Shown here: piece after piece, positions 28,297 through 63,179 of the stretch
Numbering within the stretch: the first letter of the stretch is position 1
Layout: each line of letters opens with the position of its first letter
Source: Escherichia coli
Lineage (GTDB): Bacteria > Pseudomonadota > Gammaproteobacteria > Enterobacterales > Enterobacteriaceae
NCBI RefSeq assembly: GCF_024223415.1
Contig: NZ_CP100500.1
Reading direction: 5' to 3' (one strand)
DNA: 64,000 bases
The notes under the pieces: generated by a model
The model's database searches: none
What the model was told of the DNA's origin: nothing
Seen by the model: only the letters and a program-made list of their open reading frames with translations
Position numbers and translations under genes: made by a program

Positions 28297-28372
28297 GCCC
28301 GGATAGCTCAGTCGGTAGAGCAGGGGATTGAAAATCCCCGTGTCCTTGGTTCGATTCCGAGTCCGGGCACCA
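28297..28372 (+). tRNA. pheU: tRNA-Phe (anticodon GAA), pheU-type
   Basis: 76-nt cloverleaf GCCCGGATAGCTCAGTCGGTAGAGCAGGGGATTGAAAATCCCC...GGTTCGATTCCGAGTCCGGGCACCA with encoded CCA; sits where pheU lies relative to yjdC. Confidence 0.97.
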
Positions 28373-28569: not shown

Positions 28570-29832
28570 ATGGCACTGACTGACGCAAAAATCCGGGCTG
28601 CAAAGCACACTGACAAGGCTTATAAACTCACTGACGGGGCTGGCATGTTCCTGCTGGTACATCCTAATGGTTCCCGTTACTGGCGTCTCCGTTATCGCAT
28701 TCTGGGTAAGGAGAAAACTCTGGCACTTGGTGTATACCCGGAGGTTTCTCTCTCCGAAGCTCGTACAAAACGGGATGAGGCCCGAAAACTGATTTCGGAG
28801 GGGATTGACCCTTGCGAACAGAAAAGAGCTAAAAAAGTAGTCCCTGATTTACAACTCTCTTTTGAACATATTGCACGACGCTGGCATGCCAGTAATAAAC
28901 AATGGGCACAATCACACAGCGATAAGGTACTCAAAAGCCTCGAAACACACGTTTTCCCCTTTATCGGCAACCGGAACATCACAACACTCAATACCCCGGA
29001 CCTGCTTATCCCTGTTCGTGCTGCAGAAGCTAAACAAATTTATGAAATCGCCAGTCGTCTGCAGCAAAGAATATCTGCTGTAATGCGTTATGCCGTACAG
29101 TCTGGCATCATCAGATATAATCCTGCTCTGGATATGGCTGGCGCATTGACTACGGTAAAACGCCAGCATCGCCCCGCTCTTGATCTTTCTCGCCTGCCTG
29201 AACTTTTGTCGCGTATTGGCAGTTACAAGGGGCAACCTGTCACCCAGCTTGCCGTTATGCTGAATTTACTGGTTTTTATTCGTTCCAGTGAACTCAGATA
29301 CGCCCGCTGGTCTGAAATTGATATTGACAATGCCATGTGGACTATTCCAGCCGAACGCGAACCCCTGCCAGGCGTAAAATTCTCACACCGGGGCTCCAAG
29401 ATGCGAACACCACATCTTGTGCCACTCAGCAAACAGGCTGTAGCCATACTGACAGAACTACAGACATGGGCTGGTGAAAATGGTCTGATCTTTACGGGAG
29501 CACATGACCCGCGTAAACCAATCAGTGAAAATACTGTAAATAAAGCCCTGAGGGTGATGGGGTATGACACAACCCAGGATGTCTGTGGCCATGGATTCCG
29601 GGCGATGGCGTGCAGTGCATTGATTGAATCAGGTTTGTGGTCCCGCGATGCTGTGGAACGTCAGATGAGCCATCAGGAGCGTAATGGTGTACGTGCTGCG
29701 TATATCCATAAAGCAGAACATCTGGAAGAACGTCGACTGATGCTACAGTGGTGGGCAGATTTTCTGGATGCGAACAGAGATAAGGGTATCAGCCCGTTTG
29801 AATATGCAAAGATTAACAATCCATTAAAATAG
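28570..29832 (+). CDS. int: P4-type tyrosine integrase (island integrase)
   Basis: 420 aa; N-terminal MALTDAKIRAAK...YWRLRYR typical of P4-like integrases; C-terminal catalytic region with R...HGFR...Y; first gene 3' of tRNA-Phe. Confidence 0.9.
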   Translation: MALTDAKIRAAKHTDKAYKLTDGAGMFLLVHPNGSRYWRLRYRILGKEKTLALGVYPEVSLSEARTKRDEARKLISEGIDPCEQKRAKKVVPDLQLSFEHIARRWHASNKQWAQSHSDKVLKSLETHVFPFIGNRNITTLNTPDLLIPVRAAEAKQIYEIASRLQQRISAVMRYAVQSGIIRYNPALDMAGALTTVKRQHRPALDLSRLPELLSRIGSYKGQPVTQLAVMLNLLVFIRSSELRYARWSEIDIDNAMWTIPAEREPLPGVKFSHRGSKMRTPHLVPLSKQAVAILTELQTWAGENGLIFTGAHDPRKPISENTVNKALRVMGYDTTQDVCGHGFRAMACSALIESGLWSRDAVERQMSHQERNGVRAAYIHKAEHLEERRLMLQWWADFLDANRDKGISPFEYAKINNPLK

Positions 29833-31619: not shown

Positions 31620-34600
31620 ATGGATGAAAATGCTTTAGGGTTTGCCTCATACTGGCGCAACTCGCTTGCGGATGCTGAGTCAGGAAAGGGCAGTTTTGAA
31701 CGGAAAGACGCCAAAAATTTCACTCATTGGCATGGGATAGCGGCGGGACGTCTTGACGAAGCGATTGTCAGTAAATTTTTTAAGGGAGAAAAAGACGATG
31801 TCGAAACGGTCGATGTCATCTTGCGCCCAAAAGTTTATTTCCGGTTACTGCAGCATGGTAAGGACCGTTCTGCAGGTGCGCCTGATATTGTTACCCCGAT
31901 AGTGACGCCAGCCTTGCTAAGCCGTGAGGGTTTTTTATATCCGACGCCAGCGACCTCCATTCCCAGAGACCTGCTTGAACCTTTGCCAAAAGGAGCATTT
32001 TCGATTGGTGAGATTGGGCAGTATGACAAATACAAGACGACCCATACCACGTTCTCTATCAACTTTGATGACAGCGTTGATAAGACTGCCGAAACGCATG
32101 AAGAACGGGAAGCACGATATGCCGCCTTGCAGCAGGAGTGGCGTCAATATCTGTATGACTCAGAGAGGCTACTGAAGAGCGTTGCCAGCGACTGGATTGA
32201 AAAACCTGAGCAATATGAACTCGCTGAGCACGGTTATATTGTTAAAACGGCGCAATCTGGCGGTGCCAGTTTCCATATCCTTTCTCTTTATGATCACCTG
32301 CTTGTTTGCAATAAGGATGTGCCGCTCTTCAATCGATTCGCCTCGCGAGAGGTTCATGCTGCAGAGTCTTTGCTGGCCCCTGGAGCAAAATTCAGCGACA
32401 GGCTTGGACACTCCGGAGATAAGTTTCCGCTGGCAAAGGCTCAGCGCGATGCCTTAAGCCATTTTCTGGATGCTAAACATGGCGATATCCTTGCTGTTAA
32501 TGGCCCTCCTGGAACCGGAAAAACCACGCTGGTGCTTTCTATCATCGCCACGCAGTGGGCCAGAGCGGCTCTCGAAAAATCTGAGCCTCCGGTTATTATC
32601 GCGACTTCAACGAATAACCAGGCTGTAACGAACATTATTGAGGCATTCGGGAAAGACTTTTCGCAAGGTTCAGGTGCGATGGCCGGGCGATGGTTGCCAG
32701 AGCTGAAAAGCTTCGGCGCTTATTTTCCCTCAAGCAGCCGTAAAGCTGAAGCAGCCAAAAAATATCAAACTGAAGATTTCTTCAACCAGGTTGAGTCAAA
32801 AGAGTATGTAGAAGATGCACTGCTGTTTTATCTGGAAAAGGCTAAGGCAGCCTTTCCTGAAAAAGAGTGTTCATCCCCTGAAAAGGTCATTGAACTCCTG
32901 CATGGTCAGTTGGCAGCAAAATCCGAGCAACTGATAAGACTGAACGCAACATGGCAAACGTTAAGCCAGATTCGGGCTGCGCGTGAGCTTATTGCTAATG
33001 ATATTGAGCAATATCTCAATAATTTAAATAAATTACTTTCCGGACAAGAACAAAAAATCACTCTACTGAAGAGTGCTAAAACGGAATGGAAAAAATATCG
33101 CGCCGGTGAATCACTGATCTATTCATTATTTTCCTGGCTTCCGGCGGTTCGCAGTAAGCGACAGTACCAAATACAGCTGTTTCTCGAAGATAAATTAGGT
33201 GCGCTGATTGCAGGAAATCAATGGTCTGATCCTGAAACTATCGAAAGTAATATTGATGGGCTGCTCAATTCCGCTGAGCGCGAGCAAACAACATACCGGC
33301 AGCAGATTGACTCCGCCCATGAAATCATTCTTAAAGAACAGCAGGCGGTTCAGGAGTGGCAGAGACTGGCTCTTGATTTAGGGTATGAGGGCGACGAGGA
33401 ACTGAGCTTCTCACAGGCCGATGAACTGGCTGATACGCAGATTCGCTTCCCTGCATTTTTACTGACGACTCACTACTGGGAAGGTCGTTGGCTGATGGAT
33501 ATGGCCAGCATTGATGATCTGCAGGAAGAGAAGAAGAAAAAAGGCGCTAAAGGGGTAACCGCCCGTTGGCAACGTCGAATGAAACTCACTCCATGTGTGG
33601 TGATGACATGCTATATGCTGCCCGGCAATATGCAGATAAGTGAGCACAAAGGACAGCGTAAATTCGAGAAAAGTTATTTGTATGATTTTGCCGATTTACT
33701 CATTGTCGATGAAGCCGGGCAGGTGCTTCCTGAAGTGGCTGCTGCCTCGTTTGCATTAGCTAAGAAGGCATTAGTGATTGGCGATACGGAGCAGATCCCG
33801 CCAATATGGAGTATTGCTCCTGCGATTGATATCGGTAACATGCTGGCGGAAAAAATTCTGTCTGGCAGTACGCAAGAAGAGATTACCGAGAAATATACGG
33901 CAATCGCAGACCTTGGTAAAAGTGCCGCATCTGGCAGCGTTATGAAAATAGCGCAGTTTGCTTCGCGCTATCAATATGATCCCGAACTGGCTCGTGGTAT
34001 GTACCTATATGAACACCGCCGGTGCTACGACAATATTATTGGATACTGTAATACGCTCTGCTATCACGGTAAGTTGTTGCCTAAAAGAGGGCGTGAAGAG
34101 AGCAATTTAATGCCCGCAATGGGGTATCTCCATATTGATGGTAAAGGAGAGCTGGCAAGTAGTGGAAGTCGATATAATTTGCTTGAGGCTGAAACGATAG
34201 CGGTCTGGTTGGCAGAGAACCAGCAAAATATTGAAGCGCATTACGGTAAATCGCTTCATGAAGTTGTCGGTATTGTGACGCCTTTTAGCGCTCAGGTATC
34301 CACTATCAAACAGGTGCTGGGCAAACAAGGTATCAGTACAGGCACGAATGAAAAGTCGCTCACAGTGGGCACCGTGCACTCTCTTCAGGGAGCGGAAAGA
34401 GCGATTGTGATATTCTCGCCAGTCTATTCAAAACATGAAGACGGCGGGTTTATTGATAGCGATAACAGCATGCTGAATGTTGCAGTCTCCCGTGCGAAGG
34501 ACAGTTTTCTGGTCTTCGGCGATATGGACCTGTTTGAGGTCCAGCCAGCCTCATCGCCACGGGGATTACTGGCAAAATACCTCTTTGAGTCAGAGAAGAA

Positions 34601-35135
34601 TGCGCTCTCTTTTGATTATAAAGAGCGTAAGGATTTAAAAACCGCCGGGACCAAAATCTACACACTTCATGGTGTGGAGCAACATGATAATTTCCTGAAT
34701 CAGACATTTGAAAATACCAGTAAACACATCACGATAGTTTCTCCATGGCTGACCTGGCAAAGGCTGGAGCAAACCGGTTTTCTTGATTCCATGATTGCGG
34801 CGTGTTCACGTGGAATTAACGTCACGATAGTCACTGACAGAAGCTACAACACTGAACATAATGATTTTGAGAAGCGAAAAGAGAAGCAGCAGAACTTTAA
34901 AGCGGCGCTGGAGAAACTGAATGCGCTGGGTATTGCTACAAAGCTGGTAAACCGTGTTCATAGCAAAATTGTTATTGGTGATGATGGTTTGCTGTGCGTG
35001 GGATCGTTCAACTGGTTTAGTGCGACACGGGAAGCGCGATATGAACGATACGATACATCAATGGTTTATTGCGGTGATAACCTGAAGGGTGAGATTGAGG
35101 CTATTTATAATAGTCTTGAGAGGCGGCAGGTTTAG
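31620..35135 (+). CDS. Superfamily-1 (Upf1/DNA2-like) helicase fused to C-terminal PLD-family (HKD) nuclease domain; candidate single-gene defence protein
   Basis: 1171 aa. Walker [10 protein letters not shown] (nt 32502-32528, aa 295-303); Walker B/motif II DEAGQ (nt 33708-33722, aa 697-701); SF1 motifs [18 protein letters not shown] and [16 protein letters not shown]; C-terminal HSKIVIGDD...GSFNWF = HxK(x4)D(x6)GSxN PLD signature (nt 34959-35030). About 290-aa N-terminal region and about 390-aa insert between Walker A and B have no motif I recognise. Confidence 0.75.
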
Positions 35136-35243: not shown

Positions 35244-36743
35244 TTATCTTCTGTCCGGAAGAATCAGAGGCTGTGGTTTCAGACTGTCTGCCGGTACATT
35301 CCTGTCTCCGTTAAAAACAATAACGGGTTCATTATCTTCGTCTGTCAGCGGATTGAATGGCGGTATATTTTCAGTACGAATGCCGGTCAGCCACTGAAAA
35401 ATACCTGCGAAATGACGGGCACTGATTTTTCTGCTGACGGACTGATGAGACGTGATGTCACTGGCGGTAATAATCAGGGGAACGCTGTAGCCTCCTTGTA
35501 TATGGCCATCATGATGAACAGGATTAGCACTGTCGCTGACCGACAGACCATGGTCAGAAAAGTAAAGCATGGCAAAATGACGGGAGTGCCGGCGAAGGAT
35601 ACCATCAAGCTGACCGAGAAAGTTATCCAGTTTACTGATGCTGGCGAGGTAACAGGCAATCTTTCGGGGATACTGCTCCAGGTAATGATTCGGCCAGGAG
35701 TTAAGTCGGTCACACGGATTCGGATGAGAGCCAATCATGTGCAGGAATATCACCTTCGGAGAGGATTTATCCGCCAGTGCACGTTCTGTTTCCTGTAACA
35801 ACAACATGTCATCCGTTTTACGGGAAGCAAAGCTGCCTTTCTTGAGGAAAACGGTATGCTCCGCATCAGAAGCAATAACAGAGATGCGTGTATCATGCTC
35901 CCCCAGTTTTCCCTGATTGGATATCCACCATGTGCTGTATCCTGCTTTTGCTGCCAGCGCCACCACGTTGTTGCCGGAGTCAGGGTTCTGCTCATAGTCA
36001 TAAATCAATGTCCGGCTCAGGGAAGGTACGGTACTGGCTGCTGCCGATGTATAGCCGTCAATAAATAAACCGGGAGCCGTATTCAGCCATGGTGTGGTTG
36101 GCACGGGATAGCCATATACCGACATATAATCCCTGCGCACACTCTCACCAGTAACGATAACAATCGTGTCATACAACGGTGTTCCCGGCAGGATTTTCCA
36201 GTTGTCAGCCCCGTGCTGACTCAGTTGTTTATAACGCTGCATTTCACGCAATGTGTCAGTTGTTCCCACAACAATTCCTTTAACCATCCGCAACGGCCAG
36301 CTGTTTACAGAGCATAATACGAACAGCAGCAGTGCCAGCCAGTTACGGTGACCGCGGTGGTGTGTCCGCCAGAAAATCACCATGAATACCAGAATCGCGG
36401 CACTGACCAGAAAATGATAAACAGGAATCATCCCGGTAAACTCTGCAGCCTCATCAGCCGTGGTCTGCAGCAACGCGACAATAAAACTGTTGTTGATTTT
36501 ACCGTACGTCATACCCGCAGGCGCATACAGTGCACAACAGAACAGAAATAACAGCGTTGTAATGGATGTGAGGGTATTTCTGTGTGCAAGGAGCAGAAGG
36601 AGAAACAGAAGCAGCACATTTCCTGTGGCATTCTTCTCAGTGTATCCGCATGCAATTGTGATTATCACAGAAATAACAAAAAAGAATAAAAACAATAAAA
36701 TCCGGGGTGTGTCGCCCGGACAAAACAGTTTTCTGATATTCAT
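35244..36743 (-). CDS. Sulfatase-family inner-membrane protein, probable phosphoethanolamine transferase (YhbX/YbiP/OpgE-like)
   Basis: 499 aa; N-terminal multi-TM region then periplasmic domain with alkaline-phosphatase-superfamily motifs (VTGESVRRDY, HMIGSHPNPCD, YFSDHG); AT-rich flanks. Confidence 0.6.
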   Translation of the reverse strand: MNIRKLFCPGDTPRILLFLFFFVISVIITIACGYTEKNATGNVLLLFLLLLLAHRNTLTSITTLLFLFCCALYAPAGMTYGKINNSFIVALLQTTADEAAEFTGMIPVYHFLVSAAILVFMVIFWRTHHRGHRNWLALLLFVLCSVNSWPLRMVKGIVVGTTDTLREMQRYKQLSQHGADNWKILPGTPLYDTIVIVTGESVRRDYMSVYGYPVPTTPWLNTAPGLFIDGYTSAAASTVPSLSRTLIYDYEQNPDSGNNVVALAAKAGYSTWWISNQGKLGEHDTRISVIASDAEHTVFLKKGSFASRKTDDMLLLQETERALADKSSPKVIFLHMIGSHPNPCDRLNSWPNHYLEQYPRKIACYLASISKLDNFLGQLDGILRRHSRHFAMLYFSDHGLSVSDSANPVHHDGHIQGGYSVPLIITASDITSHQSVSRKISARHFAGIFQWLTGIRTENIPPFNPLTDEDNEPVIVFNGDRNVPADSLKPQPLILPDRR

Positions 36744-38991: not shown

Positions 38992-40971
38992 TCAGGTGCC
39001 GATTATGCCGCCGTCGGCTTTTACGATAACGACAGTTGAGGAGCGCGGACGACCAGCCTTATCGCCGTCAGGCCAGCTTGATACTGCCGTCGGATGCTGC
39101 GGATCGCTAAGCCCTTCGCTTGGCTCGCCAGGGTGCTGGATGTTAATAAACAGCGTCCGGTTATCCGGAGTGAACGCGATGCCGGTGATTTCGCAGCCGC
39201 GCGGGCCGGTCAGGAAGCGGCGGAACTCATTGGTACCGGGGATCGTCGCCACCATCTGGTTGTTGCCCATGCCTTTGTAATCTTTAATATTTATGGTTGA
39301 TGACGACACGTCGGTCTGGATCCATAGCACGCCGCGGTGATCGAAGCTCAGGCCATCGGCGCTGCCGAATTCCGCACCCTTCATGCTGCCTTTGGTTTCC
39401 GGTTTGTCTGTATCGGTGCGACCGCCCATCACAAGAATATCCCAGGCAAACTGCAGCGCGGTCGGGTCACCGTTATGCTCCAACCAGTGAATGATGTGGC
39501 CGTAAACGTTTTTGGCGCGCGGGTTGGCCGCATCCACTGGCGCTTTTCCTTCCGTACCGCGATCGCTGTTGTTGGTGAGCGTGCAGTAAACGCTGCCGGC
39601 GTGATATGGATCGACCGCAATCCACTCCGGGCGGTCCATTTTAGTGGCCCCCACGGCGTCTGCCGCCAGACGGGTTTTAATCAACAGGTCGCCCTGGTTT
39701 TCAAACCCTTTACTGGCGTCGAGCCCATTTTGTCCGAACACCAGCGGTAGCCACTCGCCTTTGCCGTCGTCGTTAAATTTCGCCACGTACAGAGTGCCTT
39801 TTTCCAGCAGGTGCATGTTGGCTTTGCGATCCTGCGGGTTGAATTTTCCTTCCGAGACAAATTTATATATGTATTCGAATTTCTGGTCATCGCCCATATA
39901 GACCACAACGCGGTTATCCGGGGCAATTGTCACCGCTGCGCCTTCGTGTTTGATGCGACCAAGCGCGGTGTGCTTGCGCGGCACTGAATGCGGATCGTAT
40001 GGATCGATTTCCACCACCCAGCCGAAGCGGTTCGGCTCGTTCGGCGTGGCGTCGACGCTGAACCTTTTATCCACTTCGTTCCAGCGGTAAGAGTCGTCGC
40101 TCCCGCTGATACCGTAACGTTTTTCCAGCGGGTTCATCTCTGCTTTTTTTACGAAAATATCGGACCAGTTCTCTTCACACGTCAGATAGGTGCCCCACGG
40201 CGTAAATCCGTTGGCACAGTTCTGCATGGTGCCGAGAATGATTTCGCCTTTCGGATCGTCAACTGTTTGCATCAGTGGGTTATGCAGCGCCGGACCGGTG
40301 ATTTTCATCGGCGTGTTAACGGTGATGCGGCGTGCGAACGATGACGGGCGCACCACTTCCCAGCCCAGGGGCACTTTTTTTACTTCAATGACCGACACGC
40401 CCATCGCGTTCTGGCCTTTAAGAGCTTTATCGGCGCTCCAGTTGGCATCGCCATCTTTAAACAGTAGACCGTTATCGATGTATTCATGGTTTATGGCAAG
40501 CAGGCCGTGATCGGAGCTGTTCCCGCCCTGCGGCAGGCTAAACCACGCCATGCCGTCGTGGTGCATCCCGGCCTGCGCCGCCTGTTCTTCCGTGGTGTTG
40601 CTACCGTCGGTTTTAAAAACCGGCAGATTTCCGGCAATCCCGGTGGCGTCGCCCCATTTGTAGAAGGGCTTCGCGATGTATCCTTCCGGCACGATAACGG
40701 TATCTTCCGTGGAAACCGGCAGGCTGGTGAAACCGAGCGTCGTCGCTTTGCCGAGGTTACCGCTTGCTTTGGAGACCACTTTCGCCAGCGCGTTTTCCTG
40801 TTTCAGCAGAAATGGGAACGCTGCCGCGGCACCGGCGACCGTGCCTGCCTGTAACAGACGGCGGCGTGACAAATAGACTTCCGCCACCTGCGAAAACGCG
40901 CGGTTATCGCTCGGGTTACTGATTTCTTCACTATGCTCACGTTTGAATAAAGTTTTTAACGGTCTGCCCAT
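38992..40971 (-). CDS. Tat-exported PhoX-family alkaline phosphatase (DUF839-like)
   Basis: 659 aa; twin-arginine signal SRRRLLQAGTVAGAAAAFPFL; length and composition as recalled for PhoX family; not part of K-12 core. Confidence 0.6.
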   Translation of the reverse strand: MGRPLKTLFKREHSEEISNPSDNRAFSQVAEVYLSRRRLLQAGTVAGAAAAFPFLLKQENALAKVVSKASGNLGKATTLGFTSLPVSTEDTVIVPEGYIAKPFYKWGDATGIAGNLPVFKTDGSNTTEEQAAQAGMHHDGMAWFSLPQGGNSSDHGLLAINHEYIDNGLLFKDGDANWSADKALKGQNAMGVSVIEVKKVPLGWEVVRPSSFARRITVNTPMKITGPALHNPLMQTVDDPKGEIILGTMQNCANGFTPWGTYLTCEENWSDIFVKKAEMNPLEKRYGISGSDDSYRWNEVDKRFSVDATPNEPNRFGWVVEIDPYDPHSVPRKHTALGRIKHEGAAVTIAPDNRVVVYMGDDQKFEYIYKFVSEGKFNPQDRKANMHLLEKGTLYVAKFNDDGKGEWLPLVFGQNGLDASKGFENQGDLLIKTRLAADAVGATKMDRPEWIAVDPYHAGSVYCTLTNNSDRGTEGKAPVDAANPRAKNVYGHIIHWLEHNGDPTALQFAWDILVMGGRTDTDKPETKGSMKGAEFGSADGLSFDHRGVLWIQTDVSSSTINIKDYKGMGNNQMVATIPGTNEFRRFLTGPRGCEITGIAFTPDNRTLFINIQHPGEPSEGLSDPQHPTAVSSWPDGDKAGRPRSSTVVIVKADGGIIGT

Positions 40972-45123: not shown

Positions 45124-46098
45124 TTAAAAATTCGTACTGCCAAGGAATCGCTGCCCGCGCTTTTCGAAGCAGCTGTAAGGCTGCCACAGTGCAAAGGCTG
45201 CATTACCGTTCTCCGCTGCCTGGTGTTCACCATCCGGGAAAACGGCACAGGAACGCGACACTGACGGCGTCAGTCGCTGCCATTTGTGATTGCGGGTGCC
45301 GGTGTTTTCCTCCACCGCCTCCGGGGGCCACTAGCCGTCACGTTTCACGCCCTTAACCTCCCTGTAGACATGCGACTCCCCCATCCGCGTGATAATGTCG
45401 GCCACCCGCTGAGCCCCCACCGCCGCGGCCCGGTCATCATCGGTCTGCATCACAAAACCACTCCGGTGATAAACGCTCCCCCACATGTTTTTATCGGCCT
45501 AGCTGCCAATCTCGCGTTTGCCGGGAACCTGTGCCTCTGGATACAGGGATTCAGGTAATCCCGTTCGCTAGACGATGCTGTCCAGGGTACTGAGGAAATA
45601 GGCCATGGCCGGTGTCACCGGTGAATCACAGCTGAATCCGGGTACCATCCCGCCGATAAGCTGTGTGGCCGGATGACCCAGCGCATCTGCGTATTTGAAA
45701 CGAATGGCTGAACGGCGCTTCCCCTGTATTTTCATATCCGCCGGATTTCCCCCGCCGGCACTCAGCCCGGACAGGCCGTCAGTGATGGCATTCTCCGGGC
45801 CACCTGCGGTCCGGCTGACCAGCGACATCTCTTTCCAGGGATTACCACCCGGTGCCGTATAGGTGGAAATAACCACTTCCGGGATGAAATGTGTCACCTT
45901 CACGGAAATTCTGACCGTACAGCCAGACGCGCTGCAGTAAAGCCAGTAACAAATCCCGCTGACACGCCAGCTGATATAGTCCGGTGCCGCAGTACTGGCG
46001 ATAATGCTGGCGGTGTTCAGTGATACAGACGCCAGGGGCAGTGATGCCACACTCAGTAACAGCACGCCGGTACGCAGACGACATTTCAGGGACATCAT
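45124..46098 (-). pseudogene. Conjugative-element transfer protein (TraU-like?) split by frameshifts/stops
   Basis: 176-aa N-terminal ORF with signal peptide and Cys-rich segment (ICYWLYCSASGC), continued in other frames to about 45124; total about TraU size. Confidence 0.3.
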
Positions 46099-46211
46099 GG
46101 CTGCACTCCTCCCTCAGCACGGATTTTCCCGGCCATCACCACATCCATGGTGCCGTAAACCACCTCACTGTCATCAAACACCACGGCAGGGTATTTCTTC
46201 ACGCCCAGCGA

Positions 46212-46490
46212 CTAGGCATGTGCCACATCGCGGTAATGACCGGCCAGTTCCGCCTGCATCGTCTGCCATTCGGGAGACTTCATACGTACCCTGACCACCG
46301 ATTCAGCCTCACCCGCATCAGCAGGCAACAGGCCCCAAAAGCGGCTCTGAAGCTGCTCAGGCGCATCCAGCAGAACCACCCTGACACCATCAGGAGGATT
46401 AACGGGAAGATGCTGAGAATCGGTATAAATTGTTGTGCCGGCAGACGCTGCCAGCGGCAGGAAAAACAGGGAACAGAAAATCCGGTACAT
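46212..46490 (-). CDS. Small secreted protein of conjugative-element remnant
   Basis: 92-aa ORF with signal peptide MYRIFCSLFFLPLAASA; upstream of the TraU-like fragment on same strand. Confidence 0.3.
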   Translation of the reverse strand: MYRIFCSLFFLPLAASAGTTIYTDSQHLPVNPPDGVRVVLLDAPEQLQSRFWGLLPADAGEAESVVRVRMKSPEWQTMQAELAGHYRDVAHA

Positions 46491-46686
46491 CGCACGCTGT
46501 CAGTCAGATATTATCTGACTGACAGCGTGCGAAGAAAGCGCTCATTTATCAGCAATAAATTAAAAACGGGATTAAAAAATTACGGTGGGATCCGGGGAAG
46601 TGTATCTGCCAAGCATAACAGACAGTCTGTGATTATACCCGGCCTTTCACAAAGCCGGGGAACTGATTCATACCAAGTGGTGATTT

Positions 46687-47424: not shown

Positions 47425-49512
47425 TCAGAACTGATAGTTCAGCGACATCCAGTAATTTCTCTCAGGTATCACATAACCCGTTGTCGATGCCCCCGTCTGG
47501 AAGTAATCACCCGCATAAAGCGTACCACTGCCGGCACGATACAGACTTACGTCACTGTAATCCTTGTTAAGCACATTATTCACCGCTGCATTCAGCATCA
47601 GTGCATCCGTCACTTTCCACGACATGCCCGCATCCAGTACCGTCCAGGCTTTCAGATATTCACCTTTCTCATCATACACTTTCTTCTGTACAGCTGAGAG
47701 TGACGAATAATTCTGGGTGAAACGTGGCGTTTTCCCGCGGTAACGGGCACCCAGCCATGATGTCACCTCTTCAGTAATCTGCCAGTTCAGTTTCGCATTC
47801 ACCATATGCTCAGGGGTGTAACTCAGTGGTGCACCTTTATTATCCCCATCCCGTTGTTCACTCTGCGTCCAGGTATAATTCAGAGACAGAGTCACATCCT
47901 CTGACAACAGAGGCAGTGTGCCGGCAAATTCCACGCCCTGAGTCCTGGCCTTTCCGCTGTTTGTGTAGCTGCGGGTATTATCATCAATGGAATAAGATAC
48001 GATCTTGTTGGAGAATTCTGTCATAAAGCCCGTGATATTGGCGTTCAGACCGGCATGATTATCGTAATACACGCCCGCTTCATAACTGACACTCTCCTCC
48101 GGCTTCAGGTCCGGGTTACCGAGAAGATTCGTACGCCCCTGACCGGACACACCGCTGATCCCCTTATGTAACTGCCCCATGCTGGGCGCCTTATATCCCG
48201 TGGTCACCCCACCTTTCAGCGTCCACGCATCAGTCACATCCCAGACCATATATGCCCGGGGACTGAAGTGTCCTCCGAACACCTCATAGCGTTCATAGCG
48301 GCTACCCGCAGTCAGTGCAAATGCATCCGTGATATACCACTCATCCTCAACAAATGCCGACCAGCTTTTCTGACGGAAGGTTTCACCAGTACTGGCGAGA
48401 ACAACCCCGTCTTTCATGGAGGAGTTCTGATACTCACCACCGACGGTAACCTTGTGTGATTCCCCCAGAGGTGCAAACAGTAATGAGCTCAGGATAAGAT
48501 TCGACTCCTTAAGCTCCCTCGGCTGGCCGGCAAGCCCCCATTTATCACGCTGCAGTACGCTACGTACAAGCTGACGGCCTTTATTTTCCGTCTCATTCCA
48601 GTTCAGGGATGACTTCCAGGCTCCGAAGGTGAATGTATGATCATAGCCTGCTGAAATTTTATTACGCTCATAGCGCAGGGTGCGATCATAACCGCCCGTC
48701 AGACTGCCCAGCTGGCCATCTCGGTTATCATAACGCTGCCGGGCGATATCCATATCAATCCAGAGTACATCCTTGTCCGTCGCTTTCCAGTCAAGACGAC
48801 CACCTGCATTATAATTCTGTGATTCCGTGGGATAAGGGATACGCGTAGCTGAGGTGTCGCTCAGTGATGTGACCGATGAGCCCTGACGCTGCTGTGTGCT
48901 GCCACGTACCTGAAGGCTGAGTGAATCATCCACAAGGGGACCGCTGCTCCAGAAATTAAACTGGCTGCTGTTCCCCCATTTGTTACTTTCCTGCAGGTTC
49001 AGCCCGGCATTAACCGAAGAGCGCCATTTGTCTGCATTCTTTTTGGTGATGATATTCACCACGCCCCCCATGGCATCAGAGCCGTACAGAGTGGACATGG
49101 GGCCCCTGATAATCTCAATACGTTCGATGGCGGCCAGAGGTGGCATAAAACCCGTATTCATGGCAGCATAACCGTTTGGGGTTACGTCACTGCTCCCGCC
49201 CTGACGGACACCATCGATCAGTATCAGCGTATAACTGGCAGGCATTCCGCGGATGCTGATTTCCAGCCCACCTGTTTTACCCGTACCGCTTTCAACATCC
49301 ACCCCCTCTACGGATCTCAGTGCCTCCCCCAGATCATGATACTGGCTGGATCGCAAATCCTCCTGGCTGATCACTGAAACACTCGCAGCTGCACTGGTTA
49401 ATTTTTTTTCATAGCCAGACGCCGTGACTACCATCACATCTTCCGCAGCCATACTGCTGACTGAAAACCCGAGACAAGGGATGGCTACTGAAGCCAGAGT
49501 GGTTACTCGCAT
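47425..49512 (-). CDS. iha: TonB-dependent outer-membrane siderophore receptor/adhesin, IrgA homologue (Iha-like)
   Basis: 695 aa; signal peptide, TonB box region (DVMVVTAS), plug motif IERIEIIRGPMSTLYGSDAMGGVVNIITKK, C-terminal ...WMSLNYQF; closely resembles recalled IrgA/Iha. Confidence 0.7.
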   Translation of the reverse strand: MRVTTLASVAIPCLGFSVSSMAAEDVMVVTASGYEKKLTSAAASVSVISQEDLRSSQYHDLGEALRSVEGVDVESGTGKTGGLEISIRGMPASYTLILIDGVRQGGSSDVTPNGYAAMNTGFMPPLAAIERIEIIRGPMSTLYGSDAMGGVVNIITKKNADKWRSSVNAGLNLQESNKWGNSSQFNFWSSGPLVDDSLSLQVRGSTQQRQGSSVTSLSDTSATRIPYPTESQNYNAGGRLDWKATDKDVLWIDMDIARQRYDNRDGQLGSLTGGYDRTLRYERNKISAGYDHTFTFGAWKSSLNWNETENKGRQLVRSVLQRDKWGLAGQPRELKESNLILSSLLFAPLGESHKVTVGGEYQNSSMKDGVVLASTGETFRQKSWSAFVEDEWYITDAFALTAGSRYERYEVFGGHFSPRAYMVWDVTDAWTLKGGVTTGYKAPSMGQLHKGISGVSGQGRTNLLGNPDLKPEESVSYEAGVYYDNHAGLNANITGFMTEFSNKIVSYSIDDNTRSYTNSGKARTQGVEFAGTLPLLSEDVTLSLNYTWTQSEQRDGDNKGAPLSYTPEHMVNAKLNWQITEEVTSWLGARYRGKTPRFTQNYSSLSAVQKKVYDEKGEYLKAWTVLDAGMSWKVTDALMLNAAVNNVLNKDYSDVSLYRAGSGTLYAGDYFQTGASTTGYVIPERNYWMSLNYQF

Positions 49513-57279: not shown

Positions 57280-57980
57280 CATTCCATGAACTGGAAGCCC
57301 AGATACGATGCATAGAGTCACCTGATATTAAAAAGAACGAGGATCTTGAGGACGAGAACCGACGTCCAAAACAGATGCTTGCCGACCTTAGCCTAGAGAA
57401 CCGGCATTGAAAGACATTATCGAAAAAAGCTTTAAAACCAGCCTGTAAGCGTGAGCTTGTTACTCATCAGATAACGACATTTGGACTCAGTGTCCATCAG
57501 GCCTGCCGGAGTCTGAACCAGAGCAGAACGGTTTCCCATTACCGTCCGGATACCACGTGGTACGACCCCGTTATTGTGGTGGTGCAGGCAGTGGACGAGC
57601 GATATCCTCGATACGGTTTTTCAAAACTTTTTCAGGTTCTGAGGCAGCAGGTTCGCGGCAAATCGCAGTTATCCGGTCATGCTGCGCATAGATAATGGTT
57701 CGGAATTTATCTCTCTAACGCTGGCTGAATGGGCTGATATACACGCAGTAAAACGGGAGTTTATCCAGCCGGGTAAGCTGACGTAGAACGCTTTTATTGG
57801 GCGTTTTAACAGGACACACCGTACAGAAATACTCGATTTTTATCTGTTCAGAACGCTGAATGAAGTTCTAGAAATTACGGAGAAATGGTTATCAGAATAT
57901 AGCTATGAACGCACACATGAATCACTGAACAATAAGACGCTGGAAGAATATCGACGACACCATTATTTGACCAAGATATA
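57280..57980 (+). pseudogene. IS3-family transposase remnants (heavily degraded)
   Basis: Fragments ...LTLAEWADIHAVKREFIQPGKLT.NAFIGRFNRTHRTEILDFYLFRTLNEVLEITEKWLSEYSYERTHESLNNKTLEEY... across several frames. Confidence 0.5.
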
Positions 57981-58140
57981 AAAATGCATGGAATTAAAAC
58001 GGGGCATATTTATATATGAATAACACAACTATATCGCTAAGGTAAAGGTGTATCCAAACGGAAAATACAGCACTAACAGCATATATTCATCCAAATTAAT
58101 AAAATATGACCGAGAACATAGAATATTAAACATTTTTAAA

Positions 58141-59400
58141 TTATGCTTTTCTCGCTAACGCTTCTATATCCGAAAAATACTCTTTAATTCCCTCTAGGAT
58201 AGATTCTGCCACTTGTTGTTGGAATCTTGCCGTTTTCAGTTTGCGCTCTTCCTCAACGTTACTGATAAACGCCGTTTCGACCAGAATGGAGGGAATATCA
58301 GGTGCTTTCAGCACGGCAAACCCGGCCTGTTCAACCTGATTTTTATGCAGCTTGTTGATTTTACCGAGCTTATTCAGCACCGCTTTACCCAACTTCAGGC
58401 TGTCGGCAATGGTCAGAGACTGCACCATATCGAACATGGTGTGGTCGACATAGCGGTCACCGCTTTTGCTCACGCCGCCAATCAAGTCCGAGGCGTTCTG
58501 GGTTTGTGCCAGATATTTTGCCGCAGTACTTGTCGCGCCTTTGGTCGAAAGCGCAAACACGGAAGAACCGCTCGGCTGGCGACTGGTAAAGGCATCAGCA
58601 TGGATAGAAACAAAAAGGTCAGCACGTTGTTTCTGTGCTTTTGCTACACGCACTTGCAACGGAATGAAGATGTCTTCATTGCGCGTCATGTACACCTTCA
58701 TATTACCCTCTTTTTCGATCAGAGAGCGCAGACGGCGAGCTATTTGCAATACCACGTCTTTTTCGCGTGTTTTGTATTTCCCCACCGCACCGGGGTCTTC
58801 GCCACCGTGGCCGGGGTCAAGCATAATGACAATCGGACGATCACGCCCTGCTTTACCCGGTTGTGGACCACTTTGTGCTGGCGGCACCTGCTTTTCGAGG
58901 TCGCCTTTGTTGTAATCCTCCAGCAGCGCCAGCAGCGGGTCCTGCATATCCTGTGCATTGGCCGGATAGAGGTCCATCACCAGACGCTCTTTAAACCCGG
59001 CGACCGGCGCAAGGGCAAACAGCTGCGGTTTTACGTTTTGCTTTAATTCAAAAACCATGCGTACGGTTTGCGGGTCAAATTGCCCGACGCGCGCCGACTT
59101 GATGAACGGGTCGTCTGCACGAATTTGTGCCGCCATCCCCTTGAGTACCGAGTTCAGGTTTACATCTTCGATATCCACCACCACACGTTCAGGGTTACTT
59201 AACGCGAACTGCTTATATTGCAGCTGACGATTTGATTCTACCGTCACGCGGGTGTAGCTGGACGCAGGCCAGACGCGTACCGCCACGACCTGGCTGACCG
59301 CAGCCAGGCTGACCTGACTTACGCTCAATAGCCACATGGCGCCCGCACCTTGCAGTAAACGACGACGGCTGATTACATAATTATAGTTAGATACCAGCAT
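58141..59400 (-). CDS. amiC: AmiC-family N-acetylmuramoyl-L-alanine amidase (Tat signal, AMIN domain, Amidase_3 domain)
   Basis: 419 aa; twin-arginine motif [24 protein letters not shown]; catalytic-domain segments [18 protein letters not shown] and SIHADAF; close to recalled AmiC but N-terminal residues differ; ATG at 59398-59400. Confidence 0.75.
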
Positions 59401-60054
59401 ACCTTACCTAAGCAATACAATGTTCAATAATATAACTATGCTCTAATAAATTTTTACAGGTGTTTAAAGAAATAATCACACGTATTCTTATCTTTGCAAT
59501 CTAATCTAATTTTAAATAAAGGTCAATATCTTATTTTTTTGATATAAGTTTTCTTAAATACCACGATATAAAAACATTTTATTTAAGTGATTTCTTTTAG
59601 TTTGCTTTTCAAATAAAAGGGATGTACTCATGACATTTTAAATATGTACATCATGCACAGCAATATTATAGTTTTTTATCTGATTACTGAGAAGTATCTA
59701 TCAATAGAACAATGTTTTTTAGTTTGTATAGGGAAGAGTTGGGTTGAATTGAGAATAAAAACTAGAGATTACTGGGGAAGGAACTTTTCAAATCCGAAAT
59801 CATGGTCTACAATGAAAAAATGATGTTCTAAGTATTCCTATCATGAATAAGAATGCACCATATTTTGAATAGTATAATTTTATATTTATATATCCTTTAC
59901 TGTACGATGATGATATTTTATACCTGAATGACAAGGGTGTTATTTTATACCACATATAAATTTGCAGAAAATATAAAATGAGAAGCACTGAATAATCGCG
60001 GCTTCTGGCTATGATTTAAATGCTTTTACATTTTTTCAAAGTAAATTCAGTTCA

Positions 60055-60265
<211 letters not shown>

Positions 60266-61342
60266 TCAAGCAGTTATCGGGGTGCTGTTGATCTGCCTGT
60301 TTTGATTACGCAGTAATGTATAAACTTCGTGTGAGATATAGCGCTTCAGGCTGCGTATTGTTTCCATTTTTGTATGCCCTTCCGCTACTCGTCTGGCGAC
60401 ATATTCCTTCGTTTTATCGTCAGTTCGCAAACGTCCGATGGAAATGATGTGAAGTGCACTATTTGCAGCACGATCTCCACCCCGGTTAAGTCGATAACGA
60501 TTCGTTTTTCCTGAAGATACGGGAACAGGGCTGACACCACACAGTGCCGCAAAACCTGATTCTGATCTTAATCGTTGGGGATTGTCTCCGGCAGTGATCA
60601 GCAACTGTGAAGCGCTTTCGTATCCAATAGCATTACGTTTAATCAGTGCAGGTGCCAGCTCATCCACAATTGCCGCAATCATAACATCCAAATCAGCGAT
60701 TTCGTCATGTAACTCGAGATAGCGTCGGGCAAGGGACTTTAATGAAATACGATAAACGTTGGTAACATTGAGCTATTCACTGGCATCAGGCCGCCAGGAT
60801 CTCAGAGTCCTGATGAGCTGCATGCGCGTCATATTTCTGAGCTGTTCACGTAATTCATCCGGGGCAGAGATAATATTGGAATGGTTAATCTGGAGAGCGA
60901 CTCAGCGGGCTGATATTGCTGTTTTTCGGCAAGTTTTTAATACCCGCAGAGACTCAATCATACCATTGCGCGTTTTGGGTGTGACAGTTCTTATTCCGGA
61001 GCATGCGGCGTGAGCGGCACATTCAGCATCAATCGTGTCACTTTTACCCCGTTTGCGTCGCTCCATCCGATCTGGCACAGCCACCTCAAGAACTTCTAAC
61101 CCGGCATTCTGTAAATAGCGAAGCAGACCTGATCCATAGGTGCCTGTACACTCAACACCAATTCGCTTTAATGCCCCAAACGAAGCCATCCATGCCAGCA
61201 TCTGCCGGTAACCTTGCCGTGTTGTGGAGAAAAACGGGGTCCCCAGAACTTTATTGTTCTGATCTACGACAGCGGCAACGTGCAGATCTTTATGTATATC
61301 CACGCCACCCACAACAGCGGTTTCCGTAACTTTACCTGCCAT
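60266..61342 (-). pseudogene. IS110-family transposase in two pieces (frameshift in 60692-60901)
   Basis: N-terminal ORF 60902-61342 (MAGKVTETAVVGGVDIHKDLHVAAVV...) and C-terminal ORF 60266-60691 (...LCGVSPVPVSSGKTNRYRLNRGGDRAANSALH...). Confidence 0.6.
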
Positions 61343-62010
61343 AACAGAGCTCCTGTGAGGAAACAGAGTTGAATCTCCAGACAGATAACCCGGACAGGAC
61401 AGTAACGAGACAAGCCGTCAGGCCCTTCTTGAGTCACGCGCATCGGTGAGGAGACGCCTCGCATGAAGGCGTTTCCGACATCCTCTCTGTTCATCGGCAG
61501 ATAGCCTATTTCATCCAGGATCAACACCCGGGCATAACTCAGTTGCTGTAGCTGACGCTCCAGCCGGTTTTCCTGTTTCGCTTTCATCAGTGTCGCGATC
61601 AGTCTGTCCAGTGGCATAAACAGTACCCGATGTCCCGCATCCACCGCTTTCACGCCAAGAGCTATGGCCAGATGAGTTTTTCCGACACCAGGAGGTCCCA
61701 GCAGGATCACGTTTTCGCTGCGCTCCACGAACGCCAGACCAGCCAGTTCCCGGACAACCTTACGGTAGATGCCCGGCTGGAAGGTAAAGTCGAACTGCTC
61801 CAGCGTTTTGACCCACGGCAGACGAGCCTGCTTCAGCCTGGACTCCATACCGCGCTGATGCCTGCCGTTCCATTCCTGCTGTAGCGCCATGCACAGGAAC
61901 TCCCGGTAGTTCAGCTCTTTTTTAGCTGCCTGTTCCAGCAGGCTTTCAACGTGATAACTCAGATGCTCCATTTTCAGGCGACTCAGCAGGACTTCCAGCT
62001 CATGCATCAC
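61264..62010 (-). pseudogene. istB: IS100 (IS21 family) IstB ATP-binding helper, C-terminus replaced after DEIGYLPMNRE
   Basis: N-terminal 170 aa match recalled IS100 IstB incl. Walker A GPPGVGKTH; downstream sequence unrelated, coinciding with the adjacent IS110-family element. Confidence 0.7.
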
Positions 62011-63179
62011 AACAGCTCCTCATAGGCACTCAGTAGTCGATGTTCCACCTGACTGACCTGCTGCCAGAGCGGGGTGTGATGCTCCGGCACTGTCTGCCAG
62101 CCAGACGATGCCGAACAGAGGCGATGTGAGGCCACCAGTTTCTCATTACTGTAGATCCGCAACTCGTCATCCAGCGATATTCGTATCGATACCGGCTGAC
62201 CACACAGCGCTTCGGGAACGCTGTAACGATTACCACCAACCTCGATATAGCTGTCCCAGGACACATGGCGGATGTCAAAGTAACTGGTATCGAAGTCCGT
62301 ATCCGGTAACGGCTGCAGATATTCCTGCTCCAGCGCGAAGCGCTGTTCCGGCGTTTCTTTGAACTGACGAAGCTCCCGTTTGTCAGCCACATCGGCTATC
62401 CATTGCTCCAGTTGTTGATTGACATGAGTGAAGCTGTCGAACCTGCGGTACCGGACGAAGAAGTTCTCCTTGAGGTATTTCACCATCCGCTCAACCTTAC
62501 CTTTTGTTCTGGCCCTGCGTGGACGGCATGCCCGTGGCAGGAAGTTATAGTGGTCAGCCAGCAACAGAAATCCGGAGTTGAACACGACTTTCCCGTTGTT
62601 ATTCTTCAGCACCGCAGCCTTCTGGTTATCAACCAGCACCGTTTTCACACAACCACCGAAGTAGCGGAAGGCGCGAACCAGTGATTCGTAGGTATTCTCA
62701 GCATCCTGTTTTGGGGCAGCGAAGACATGAAAGCGGCGGGAGAACCCCAGCGCATTAACCGCAAAGTTAACTTTGCACGGTTGCCCGGCAACTTCCACCT
62801 CAACTTCGCCCCAGTCGTGCTGGAGCTGGTATCCAGGCTGAGTTTCGAAGCGAACTGTTCTTTTTGACGGACGCATTTTACGTTTGGGCTGGATGTAGTA
62901 ACGCAGCATGGAACGTCCGCCCGTATAGCCCATTGCCTTAATCTCCGCGAAGATAACCGCGCTATTCCAGACATTCTCTGCCAGGCGCATGTCGATGTAA
63001 TCCATAAACGGTTTCAGCTTAACCATTTTGTGGCGGGTCCTTCTGGCTGGCGGTTCAGGGTATTTGAGGTAGCGTCTGACCGTTCGTTCAGAGCAACCAA
63101 TCTGAGTCACAATATCGACAATGTACGCGCCCTGCTGGCGCATTTGCTTTATCATGTAAAAGTCCTCTCTGCTCAGCAT
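62007..63179 (-). CDS. istA: IS100 (IS21 family) transposase IstA
   Basis: 390 aa MLSREDFYMIKQMRQQGAYIVDI...; near-identical to recalled IS100 IstA. Confidence 0.9.
   Translation of the reverse strand: MLSREDFYMIKQMRQQGAYIVDIVTQIGCSERTVRRYLKYPEPPARRTRHKMVKLKPFMDYIDMRLAENVWNSAVIFAEIKAMGYTGGRSMLRYYIQPKRKMRPSKRTVRFETQPGYQLQHDWGEVEVEVAGQPCKVNFAVNALGFSRRFHVFAAPKQDAENTYESLVRAFRYFGGCVKTVLVDNQKAAVLKNNNGKVVFNSGFLLLADHYNFLPRACRPRRARTKGKVERMVKYLKENFFVRYRRFDSFTHVNQQLEQWIADVADKRELRQFKETPEQRFALEQEYLQPLPDTDFDTSYFDIRHVSWDSYIEVGGNRYSVPEALCGQPVSIRISLDDELRIYSNEKLVASHRLCSASSGWQTVPEHHTPLWQQVSQVEHRLLSAYEELL

Follow-up and report, generated by a model that had tools for sequence, protein, structure and literature searches.

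Two kinds of described system are closest to the locus reported here: the amidases AmiA, AmiB and AmiC of Escherichia coli, and gene conversion between dispersed paralogs of enterobacteria. In the latter, for which tufA and tufB are an example, two copies of a gene on one chromosome swap internal tracts through homologous recombination, and a mosaic with sharp boundaries results. In the amidase family, the AMIN domain provides targeting, a zinc-binding blocking helix autoinhibits the enzyme, and a LytM domain activates it by acting on the interaction helix (PMC10268282). AmiC is exported via Tat and AmiB via Sec, and AmiA has no AMIN domain (PMC10268282).

In this study, we analyzed an amiC gene carried by a genomic island of E. 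coli. The gene lies in a stretch of 64,000 nucleotides (hereafter, the window) from contig NZ_CP100500.1. A literature search on amiC at pheV, in strain SMS-3-5, and as a second island-borne copy found no description of such a gene.

Location and identity of the island gene

The features of the locus in the window are listed below. Several of them were mapped from the RefSeq annotation of genome E41 (NZ_CP069707.1), which matches positions 57700-60200 of the window at 100% and carries the island copy at 863026-864285.

28297-28372, plus strand: tRNA-Phe (GAA), pheV, the attachment site of the island (ARAGORN; sole tRNA in the window)
28570-29832, plus strand: island integrase (tyrosine recombinase) adjoining pheV (ORF; NCBIfam integrase domain, E = 3e-73; E41 annotation)
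57289-58012, plus strand: IS3-family transposase pseudogene and element end, abutting the module (mapped E41 RefSeq annotation; the pseudogene proper extends to ~57997)
58013-58140, minus strand: AT-rich downstream flank of the accessory gene (sequence)
58141-59400, minus strand: accessory (island-borne) amiC CDS, 419 aa, intact (ORF, NCBIfam, Pfam, 4BIN alignment)
59353-59370, minus strand: Tat motif S-R-R-R-L-L, residues 11-16 (read from the translation)
59401-60105, minus strand: AT-rich upstream flank, presumed promoter/5′-UTR region (GC 24-33% to ~60020)
60106-60249, minus strand: IS3-family transposase fragment, the upstream boundary of the module (E41 annotation)
60266-61342, minus strand: IS110-family transposase pseudogene with an internal stop (E41 annotation, split ORFs)
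61465-63179: IS21/IS100-type istB/istA, beyond the IS110 pseudogene, where an IS66 tnpB is also found

The open reading frame of island amiC is uninterrupted and starts with ATG, with an AAGG Shine-Dalgarno-like motif 4 nt upstream. Its product scored 792.6 bits against the NCBIfam model NF038267 "amidase_AmiC" (cutoff 700) and fell below the cutoffs of the AmiA and AmiB models (277/400 and 217/532). Pfam assigned an AMIN domain to residues 40-144 (3e-21) and an Amidase_3 domain to residues 192-406 (1e-51), and residues 36-418 align to E. coli AmiC (PDB 4BIN) with E = 6e-241 and ~97% identity. From residue 11 on, the protein has the signal region of native AmiC, with the Tat motif, the hydrophobic stretch, and SLA/A. 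The predicted end of the signal peptide at SLA/A (residue 33) is transferred from K-12 AmiC and is presumably the same here. RefSeq already names the product AmiC (WP_000961390.1, in E41, or WP_000961389.1). By every sequence criterion tested, the island gene is a bona fide AmiC-type amidase gene. The initial annotation had described an intact AmiC-like Tat amidase at 58141-59400, and the uninterrupted frame, the NF038267 score above cutoff, and the two domains confirm it.

The core of the gene has a GC content of ~50-57% and is embedded in AT-rich DNA, with ~32-38% downstream and 24-33% over ~600 bp upstream. The description of the flanks as IS debris was also accurate, with an IS3 pseudogene on one side and the AT-rich stretch followed by IS3, IS110, and IS21/IS100 remnants on the other. 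The last ~53 nt of the downstream IS3 element (57960-58012) match the ends of IS3-family elements on plasmids, and an ORF at 60052-60210 has an IS3 OrfB-type motif. A repeat search found no convincing terminal repeats or target duplications around the module that would define a composite transposon. The downstream flank has no homology to the downstream region or terminator of native amiC. The upstream flank contains sigma-70-like matches, for example at 59526-59498, which are consensus matches and thus candidate promoters only, and no Rfam match was found in or around it. Searches of plasmid and phage records with the flank and the module returned no true record containing the module; the matches were IS3 ends or mislabelled chromosomal amiC. 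The phage or plasmid occurrence with lysis or transfer neighbors that would mark a phage endolysin or a plasmid-borne amidase was not found.

The amidase gene is located ~30 kb inside an island that also carries the integrase, iha, remnants of ICE genes, and much IS debris. In E41, the neighbors of the tRNA-Phe gene are yqgA, speC, nupG, and mltC. Therefore, this tRNA gene is pheV, on the yqgA/speC side, and not pheU as initially annotated. The annotation and ORFs of the window bear out that there is no argA beside island amiC, and the gene is not situated between the tRNA-Met genes (metZWV) and argA/recD. Because it resides in the pheV island and the native locus is separately present, it is a member of the AmiC family and not the positional orthologue of native amiC.

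A second amiC copy in 57 complete genomes

We surveyed 5,426 complete E. coli genomes, counting an island copy at a match of at least 99%. The amiC gene is present in 5,425 of them, and the island copy in 57 (about 1%). All 57 carriers have amiC at exactly two places, the maximum in any genome surveyed, and retain metZWV-amiC-argA-recD as the native locus. In E41, intact native amiC lies at 1047871-1049124, between three tRNA-Met genes and argA/recD, as in K-12; argA and recD, which the initial annotation had proposed to look for elsewhere, are thus found at the native locus. SMS-3-5 likewise has both the island and the native gene, the latter at an intact locus. Island amiC is a second copy and not a relocated native gene.

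The initial annotation had left two readings, a paralogous amidase carried by the island and a joining of the pheU and amiC regions through IS-mediated rearrangement. The first holds, with two amiC places in every carrier and an intact native gene in E41 and SMS-3-5. The second fails, since the native locus is untouched, no flanks are shared, and the island sits at pheV. Nor are the junctions an assembly artefact, which had been considered as a possibility: the same 2.5-kb arrangement is found at 99.8% identity or more in 57 independent complete genomes. Over these 2.5 kb, the window matches E41 and VTB96933v at 100% and SMS-3-5 at 99.9%.

The 626-bp AT-rich upstream stretch occurs once per genome (at least 99%) in the same 57 carriers and nowhere else in E. 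coli. The exact island AmiC protein occurs on 654 contigs, all under the name E. coli. SMS-3-5 is among the carriers, as are many isolates from poultry and humans. Native amiC of E41 is identical to that of K-12, and the SMS-3-5 native allele differs from the K-12 allele at 32 sites. The unlike native alleles of these two carriers indicate that the island is present in unrelated chromosomal backgrounds. The two amiC copies form a direct repeat with a spacing of ~184 kb in E41 and ~190 kb in SMS-3-5.

Mosaic structure of island amiC

BLAST against the K-12 region aligned only CDS nucleotides ~24-1233, with 94.9% identity, leaving the flanks and the first ~8 codons unaligned. The protein has three substitutions relative to K-12 AmiC before residue 392, and 10 of the last 28 residues differ. 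The gene can be divided into four segments; P0041 is the second accessory gene described in the next section.

59371-59400, minus strand: foreign 5′ end, codons 1-10, GC 0.30 (no K-12 alignment before nt ~24; the P0041 gene aligns from the ATG)
58801-59370, minus strand: core segment 1, CDS nt 31-600, AMIN domain and linker, E. coli-type (dS 0.07 to K-12)
58231-58800, minus strand: core segment 2, CDS nt 601-1170, Escherichia-type, older and patchy (dS 0.31 to K-12)
58141-58230, minus strand: foreign 3′ end, last ~29 codons, GC3 0.28 (27 of 87 nt differ from K-12)

Nucleotide divergence from K-12 is 2.7% and 1.7% in the two 300-nt blocks of segment 1 (dS 0.07). It rises to 7.3% and 4.2% in the 300- and 240-nt blocks of segment 2 (dS 0.31), which comprises most of the Amidase_3 domain, including the regulatory helices, and reaches 31% in the last 84-87 nt, where dS is saturated and dN is 0.21. 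The mosaic statistics were Fisher tests on fixed CDS segments. Synonymous differences from K-12 are heterogeneously distributed along the gene (p = 3e-5 and p = 7e-5), and the Fisher tests support a switch of the nearest relative along the gene with sharp boundaries, the pattern of a gene-conversion mosaic.

In all complete genomes, no native E. coli allele exceeds 98.3% identity to the island gene over nt 27-600, and the native alleles of K-12 and SMS-3-5 differ from each other at 17 of 600 positions. Therefore, segment 1 lies within the native allelic range of E. coli. Escherichia sp. MOD1-EC7003, E. whittamii, and E. albertii are all more distant from the core than E. coli is. The head and the tail, on the other hand, either could not be aligned or were saturated in the comparison with each of the native enterobacterial amiC genes. 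The head has two extra residues relative to native AmiC, and its first 10 codons differ. Native AmiC tails are near-identical across the 14 Enterobacteriaceae genomes tabulated (Escherichia, Citrobacter, Salmonella, Enterobacter, Kluyvera, and Trabulsiella). Since the native tail is almost invariant across genera, the divergent island tail is not explained by ordinary drift of an Escherichia gene. The tails of amiA and amiB were considered as sources and rejected, as they are no closer than the family level.

The composition changes at the same end. GC3 of the tail is 0.28 in both accessory genes versus 0.55 in K-12, and GC3 of the core is 0.54-0.63 in all three genes. The low-GC tail is continuous with flanks of 24-33% GC. 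Judged from these alignments, the gene is neither a simple duplicate nor a simple orthologue, and its mosaic nature and foreign ends had not been noticed in the initial annotation.

An accessory lineage with foreign ends

Screening the termini of retrieved homologues yielded one protein with a similar head, HBT4579491.1 (417 aa, "AMIN domain-containing protein"; hereafter, P0041). It is encoded on a third-party-assembled contig of 5,088 bp labelled Klebsiella pneumoniae (DAGCYQ010000186.1). Its head, MLTSNNVISRRR, is related to that of island AmiC, as is its tail. The accessory-type N-terminus (MLTSNNVI in P0041) contrasts with native MSGSNTAI, and the island 5′ end groups with the accessory type. 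Common features of the two proteins are the N-terminus ML.SN..VISRRR, the GGEDPGA variant, and the C-terminal tail. The P0041 gene (L085 3-1256) aligns over the entire island CDS with 86.7% identity, starting at the ATG and extending 9 nt beyond the stop codon.

The homology to the island locus ends at this point, and the flanking DNA is not common to the two. P0041 neighbors a Colicin_M-domain ORF, a YebF-like ORF, and an IS3 element, unlike the island locus, and its head lacks the 6-nt insertion of the island gene. The P0041 tail differs from the island tail by 10.7%, whereas the island tail differs from native genes by 26-31%. The recent E. coli-type overwrite is missing from the P0041 core, which differs by 12-14% from the island gene and from E. 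coli alike. Escherichia is the genus closest to this core (dS ~0.65, roughly what separates E. coli from E. albertii), and the P0041 tail is ~25% away from every native gene examined.

The distribution of informative sites separates the segments of the island gene. In the core (nt 31-1170), 124 sites are of K-12 type and 19 of P0041 type. In the tail (nt 1171-1257), these numbers are 1 and 19 (Fisher p = 2e-13 versus the core), and in the head, 2 and 4. Within the core, nt 31-600 has 72 K-12-type and 3 P0041-type sites, and nt 601-1170 has 52 and 16, respectively (p = 9e-4 versus nt 31-600). Segment 2 includes a P0041-like patch at about nt 804-867.

The derived 5′ end, the 3′ tail, and the low-GC3 ends are shared by island amiC and P0041, the two members found of what appears to be an accessory lineage; beside the island gene, the lineage rests on one further sequence, a 5-kb contig. 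The original low-GC donor was not found in protein-collection, representative, and metagenome searches. With the last 41 residues as query, the only match in a collection of 5.8 billion proteins was a 44-aa fragment of this gene from E. coli. A coarse search of representative proteins (50% clusters) gave none that resembled the island protein at either terminus. When metagenomes were scanned for a 26-mer specific to the tail, the one contig hit was the same E. coli island. In a scan of 100,044 species-representative genomes, the best 80 loci were all native argA-type amiC of other species.

Proposed history

Island amiC is probably an accessory, AT-rich amiC xenolog on the pheV island, whose core was overwritten in at least two layers by conversion from Escherichia chromosomal amiC and which encodes an AmiC-like product. 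An AT-rich amiC homologue would have become mobile and acquired an Escherichia-type core early, a state common to P0041. In E. coli, the core of the island lineage would then have been overwritten again by E. coli amiC, most fully over the AMIN domain and linker. The older layer would correspond to dS ~0.3 and is patchy, and the younger one to dS ~0.07, inside E. coli diversity. The original AT-rich origin would still be visible in both flanks and at the two ends of the CDS (~10 codons at the start and ~29 at the end). We infer that the direction of conversion was from the Escherichia core into the AT-rich locus, which we regard as the recipient because, in composition, its foreign ends continue into the flanks.

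The core matches no extant E. coli allele exactly, and other alleles are closer to it than the native one resident in SMS-3-5. Together with the best match of 98.3%, this suggests that the conversion donor is unsampled or that conversion took place long ago. Assembly of the mosaic could predate the entry of the island into E. coli. No reverse transfer from the island gene into native amiC was seen in the complete E. coli genomes.

Function and selection

Island AmiC should work like native AmiC, judging from its sequence. Residues 204-336 (island numbering) are identical to 4BIN; this span includes the stretch that aligns to the LLQQVLFDL interaction helix of AmiA, as well as the blocking-helix region. 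F337L is the only change near the regulatory segment, and AmiA also has L there. S203P restores a residue common in the family (AmiB-type GGQDPGA). The protein would be produced from the foreign promoter region, exported by Tat, and targeted by its AMIN domain to septal peptidoglycan, where it would be inactive under the blocking helix. A LytM activator, which for AmiC we take to be NlpD or ActS, would displace this helix, and the active enzyme would cleave stem peptides from glycan strands, leading to daughter-cell separation. Expression, activity, and any benefit to the host are putative.

The alternative that survives best concerns present-day utility only and is compatible with the structural conclusions. 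The gene may be a functionless passenger, silent or redundant, that is intact through youth or through occasional repair by the native gene. This is quite possible, if somewhat the less probable view. The island is heavily decayed, and the AT-rich upstream region, presumably of a type that is typically silenced, could be silenced here. Native AmiC, AmiA, and AmiB already cover the function (PMC10268282). The four CDS SNPs among seven inspected island copies are tiny in number, three nonsynonymous and one synonymous; with this 3:1 ratio, recent purifying selection since the spread of the island is not demonstrated. However, the ORF is intact in all seven copies while neighboring IS genes are frameshifted, and the gene is annotated without a pseudogene flag in the carriers listed. 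Polymorphism among the seven copies is also lower in the CDS (4 SNPs in 1,260 nt) than in the upstream flank (8 variants in 620 nt; p = 0.025), and dN/dS of the tail between the two accessory genes is 0.19. The core has a dN/dS of 0.01-0.07, and dN of the AMIN domain of P0041 is ~10-fold above that of E. albertii at similar dS. These substitution patterns indicate that constraint on the accessory genes is relaxed but real.

A more specific role may be imagined, in which accessory amiC is a mobile, separately regulated septal amidase whose ORF is kept by repeated conversion from the native amiC of its respective Escherichia host. Its foreign promoter and C-terminal helix would make it a stress-inducible or differently activated back-up for cell separation and envelope integrity. 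We consider this role speculative and unlikely. The colicin-M-type, lipid II-degrading toxin module beside P0041 could hint at surviving or exploiting cell-wall attack.

Alternative origins

Instead of a converted xenolog, the gene might be an unconverted whole-gene xenolog from an unsampled Escherichia-like organism that natively has these ends. The absence of the exact core donor allele among the 5,426 E. coli genomes is consistent with such a source. So is P0041, which too combines an Escherichia-like core with the same foreign ends; the shared core type and ends imply that the mosaic arose, at least in part, before the accessory genes diverged. Against such a source stand the three dS strata within one gene of 1.26 kb, and the first 600 nt, which lie inside E. 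coli diversity while P0041 is 14% away there. Native tails are near-invariant in the 14 tabulated genomes, and no island-type copy was among the best 80 loci of the 100,044-genome scan. We therefore regard this origin as unlikely.

That the resident amiC was simply copied into the island not long ago and then drifted is far less probable still. This origin would fit nt 31-600, which are inside E. coli allelic diversity at dS 0.07. It does not fit the native homology that stops abruptly inside the CDS at both ends, the match of both ends to another accessory gene (P0041), or the tail with its saturated dS and GC3 of 0.28. The resident native allele is not the nearest, and divergence is strongly heterogeneous along the gene. 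Such an in-paralog predicts uniform divergence and native-type ends, and neither was observed.

An IS-mediated relocation of the native amiC region to a site beside the tRNA-Phe island, for which the IS3/IS110/IS21/IS66 debris around the gene and the position of native amiC only ~150-190 kb away on the same replichore could speak, deserves practically no credence and is refuted, since every carrier has both loci (two copies in 57 of 57, with metZWV-amiC-argA-recD intact in E41 and SMS-3-5), the island copy being without any native flank and ~5% diverged from every E. coli allele.

The preferred reading, a mobile xenolog with a converted core, would make this locus a clean natural case of a housekeeping cell-division gene recombining with its chromosomal counterpart, and would suggest that conversion can repair or "domesticate" genes carried on islands. 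The two copies form ~95% identical direct repeats ~184-190 kb apart, which could mediate large duplications. Because both are named amiC, pipelines for copy number, orthology, or allele typing can mistake one for the other. If the island gene is expressed, amidase dosage could change, which would matter for chaining, tolerance of envelope stress, and resistance to antimicrobial peptides in poultry-associated E. coli and in extraintestinal strains.

Comparison with known systems

K-12 AmiC (b2817; 4BIN) has the same architecture as the island protein: a Tat signal, an AMIN domain, a linker, and an Amidase_3 domain with blocking and interaction helices. It differs in its location, the metZWV-amiC-argA locus instead of the pheV island, and the promoter regions of the two genes are unrelated. 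AmiA and AmiB (PDB 8C2O; 8C0J/3NE8 homologues) have the same Amidase_3 catalytic and regulatory module as island AmiC, and the island-specific residues L337 and E402 (island numbering) are those of AmiA at the aligned positions. In comparison with conversion of the tufA/tufB type, one partner here is an island xenolog, and the homogenization is partial and layered, with ends that stay foreign.

The island amiC and its accessory relative

The accessory amiC copy of the pheV island carries a 6-nt in-frame insertion (within window 59371-59400) relative to P0041 (HBT4579491.1), with which it makes up the known accessory lineage. The insertion falls within the Tat signal peptide, in its n-region, where the island gene aligns as AAC-TATAAT-TATGTA against AAC-AATGTA in P0041, and adds Tyr-Asn ahead of the twin-arginine motif.

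On its own contig (DAGCYQ010000186.1), the P0041 amiC is located 1.3 kb upstream of an ORF with a Colicin_M domain. The stretch at contig positions 2581-3444 has this ORF (151 aa) and, beside it, a convergent ORF of 135 aa; an IS3 and a DUF4376 ORF lie beyond the pair. The 135-aa product is membrane/YebF-like, and its gene is a plausible candidate for an immunity gene. The position of a cell-wall amidase beside a lipid II-degrading toxin module may reflect a functional link or a coincidence.

Two amiC copies on one chromosome

In both E. coli genomes E41 (NZ_CP069707.1) and SMS-3-5, the island and native copies are in direct orientation, approximately 184-190 kb apart, and share approximately 95% identity across 1.2 kb.

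E41, island copy: 863026-864285
E41, native copy: 1047871-1049124
SMS-3-5, island copy: 3227446-3228705
SMS-3-5, native copy: 3036388-3037641

As direct repeats, the two copies could undergo unequal crossing-over or give rise to a large tandem duplication. As for replicon type, a single amiC match within the E. coli genome set falls on a plasmid-typed record, and the plasmid collection includes several E. coli chromosomes of 4.8-4.9 Mb; both are labelling artefacts that bear on counts of "plasmid-borne" amiC.

Cargo of the pheV island

The pheV tRNA gene at window 28297-28372 (E41 894051-894126) is 3 nt off the position projected from the amiC region; therefore, the window and E41 differ by an indel of at least 3 nt between the tRNA and the amiC region, and the window may derive from a near relative of E41 instead of that strain. 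Further genes of the island include the following, the last three according to the E41 annotation.

31620-35135 (+): SF1-helicase/AAA protein, 1171 aa, just inside the island
35244-36743 (-): sulfatase-type phosphoethanolamine transferase, 499 aa
36925-37665: Adr-like outer-membrane protein, adjoining the transferase gene
38992-40971 (-): PhoX-family protein
about 45129-46495: ICE-type TIGR03756/TIGR03757 pseudogenes
47425-49512 (-): iha, siderophore receptor/adhesin gene

The helicase gene could have a defence role; the protein gives weak, far sub-threshold matches to the anti-phage helicase models PLuB, ProA, and Hhe. The phosphoethanolamine transferase is distant kin of the CptA, EptA, and MCR models, with every score far under the cutoff. 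The pheV island resembles a decayed integrative element carrying ExPEC-type cargo.
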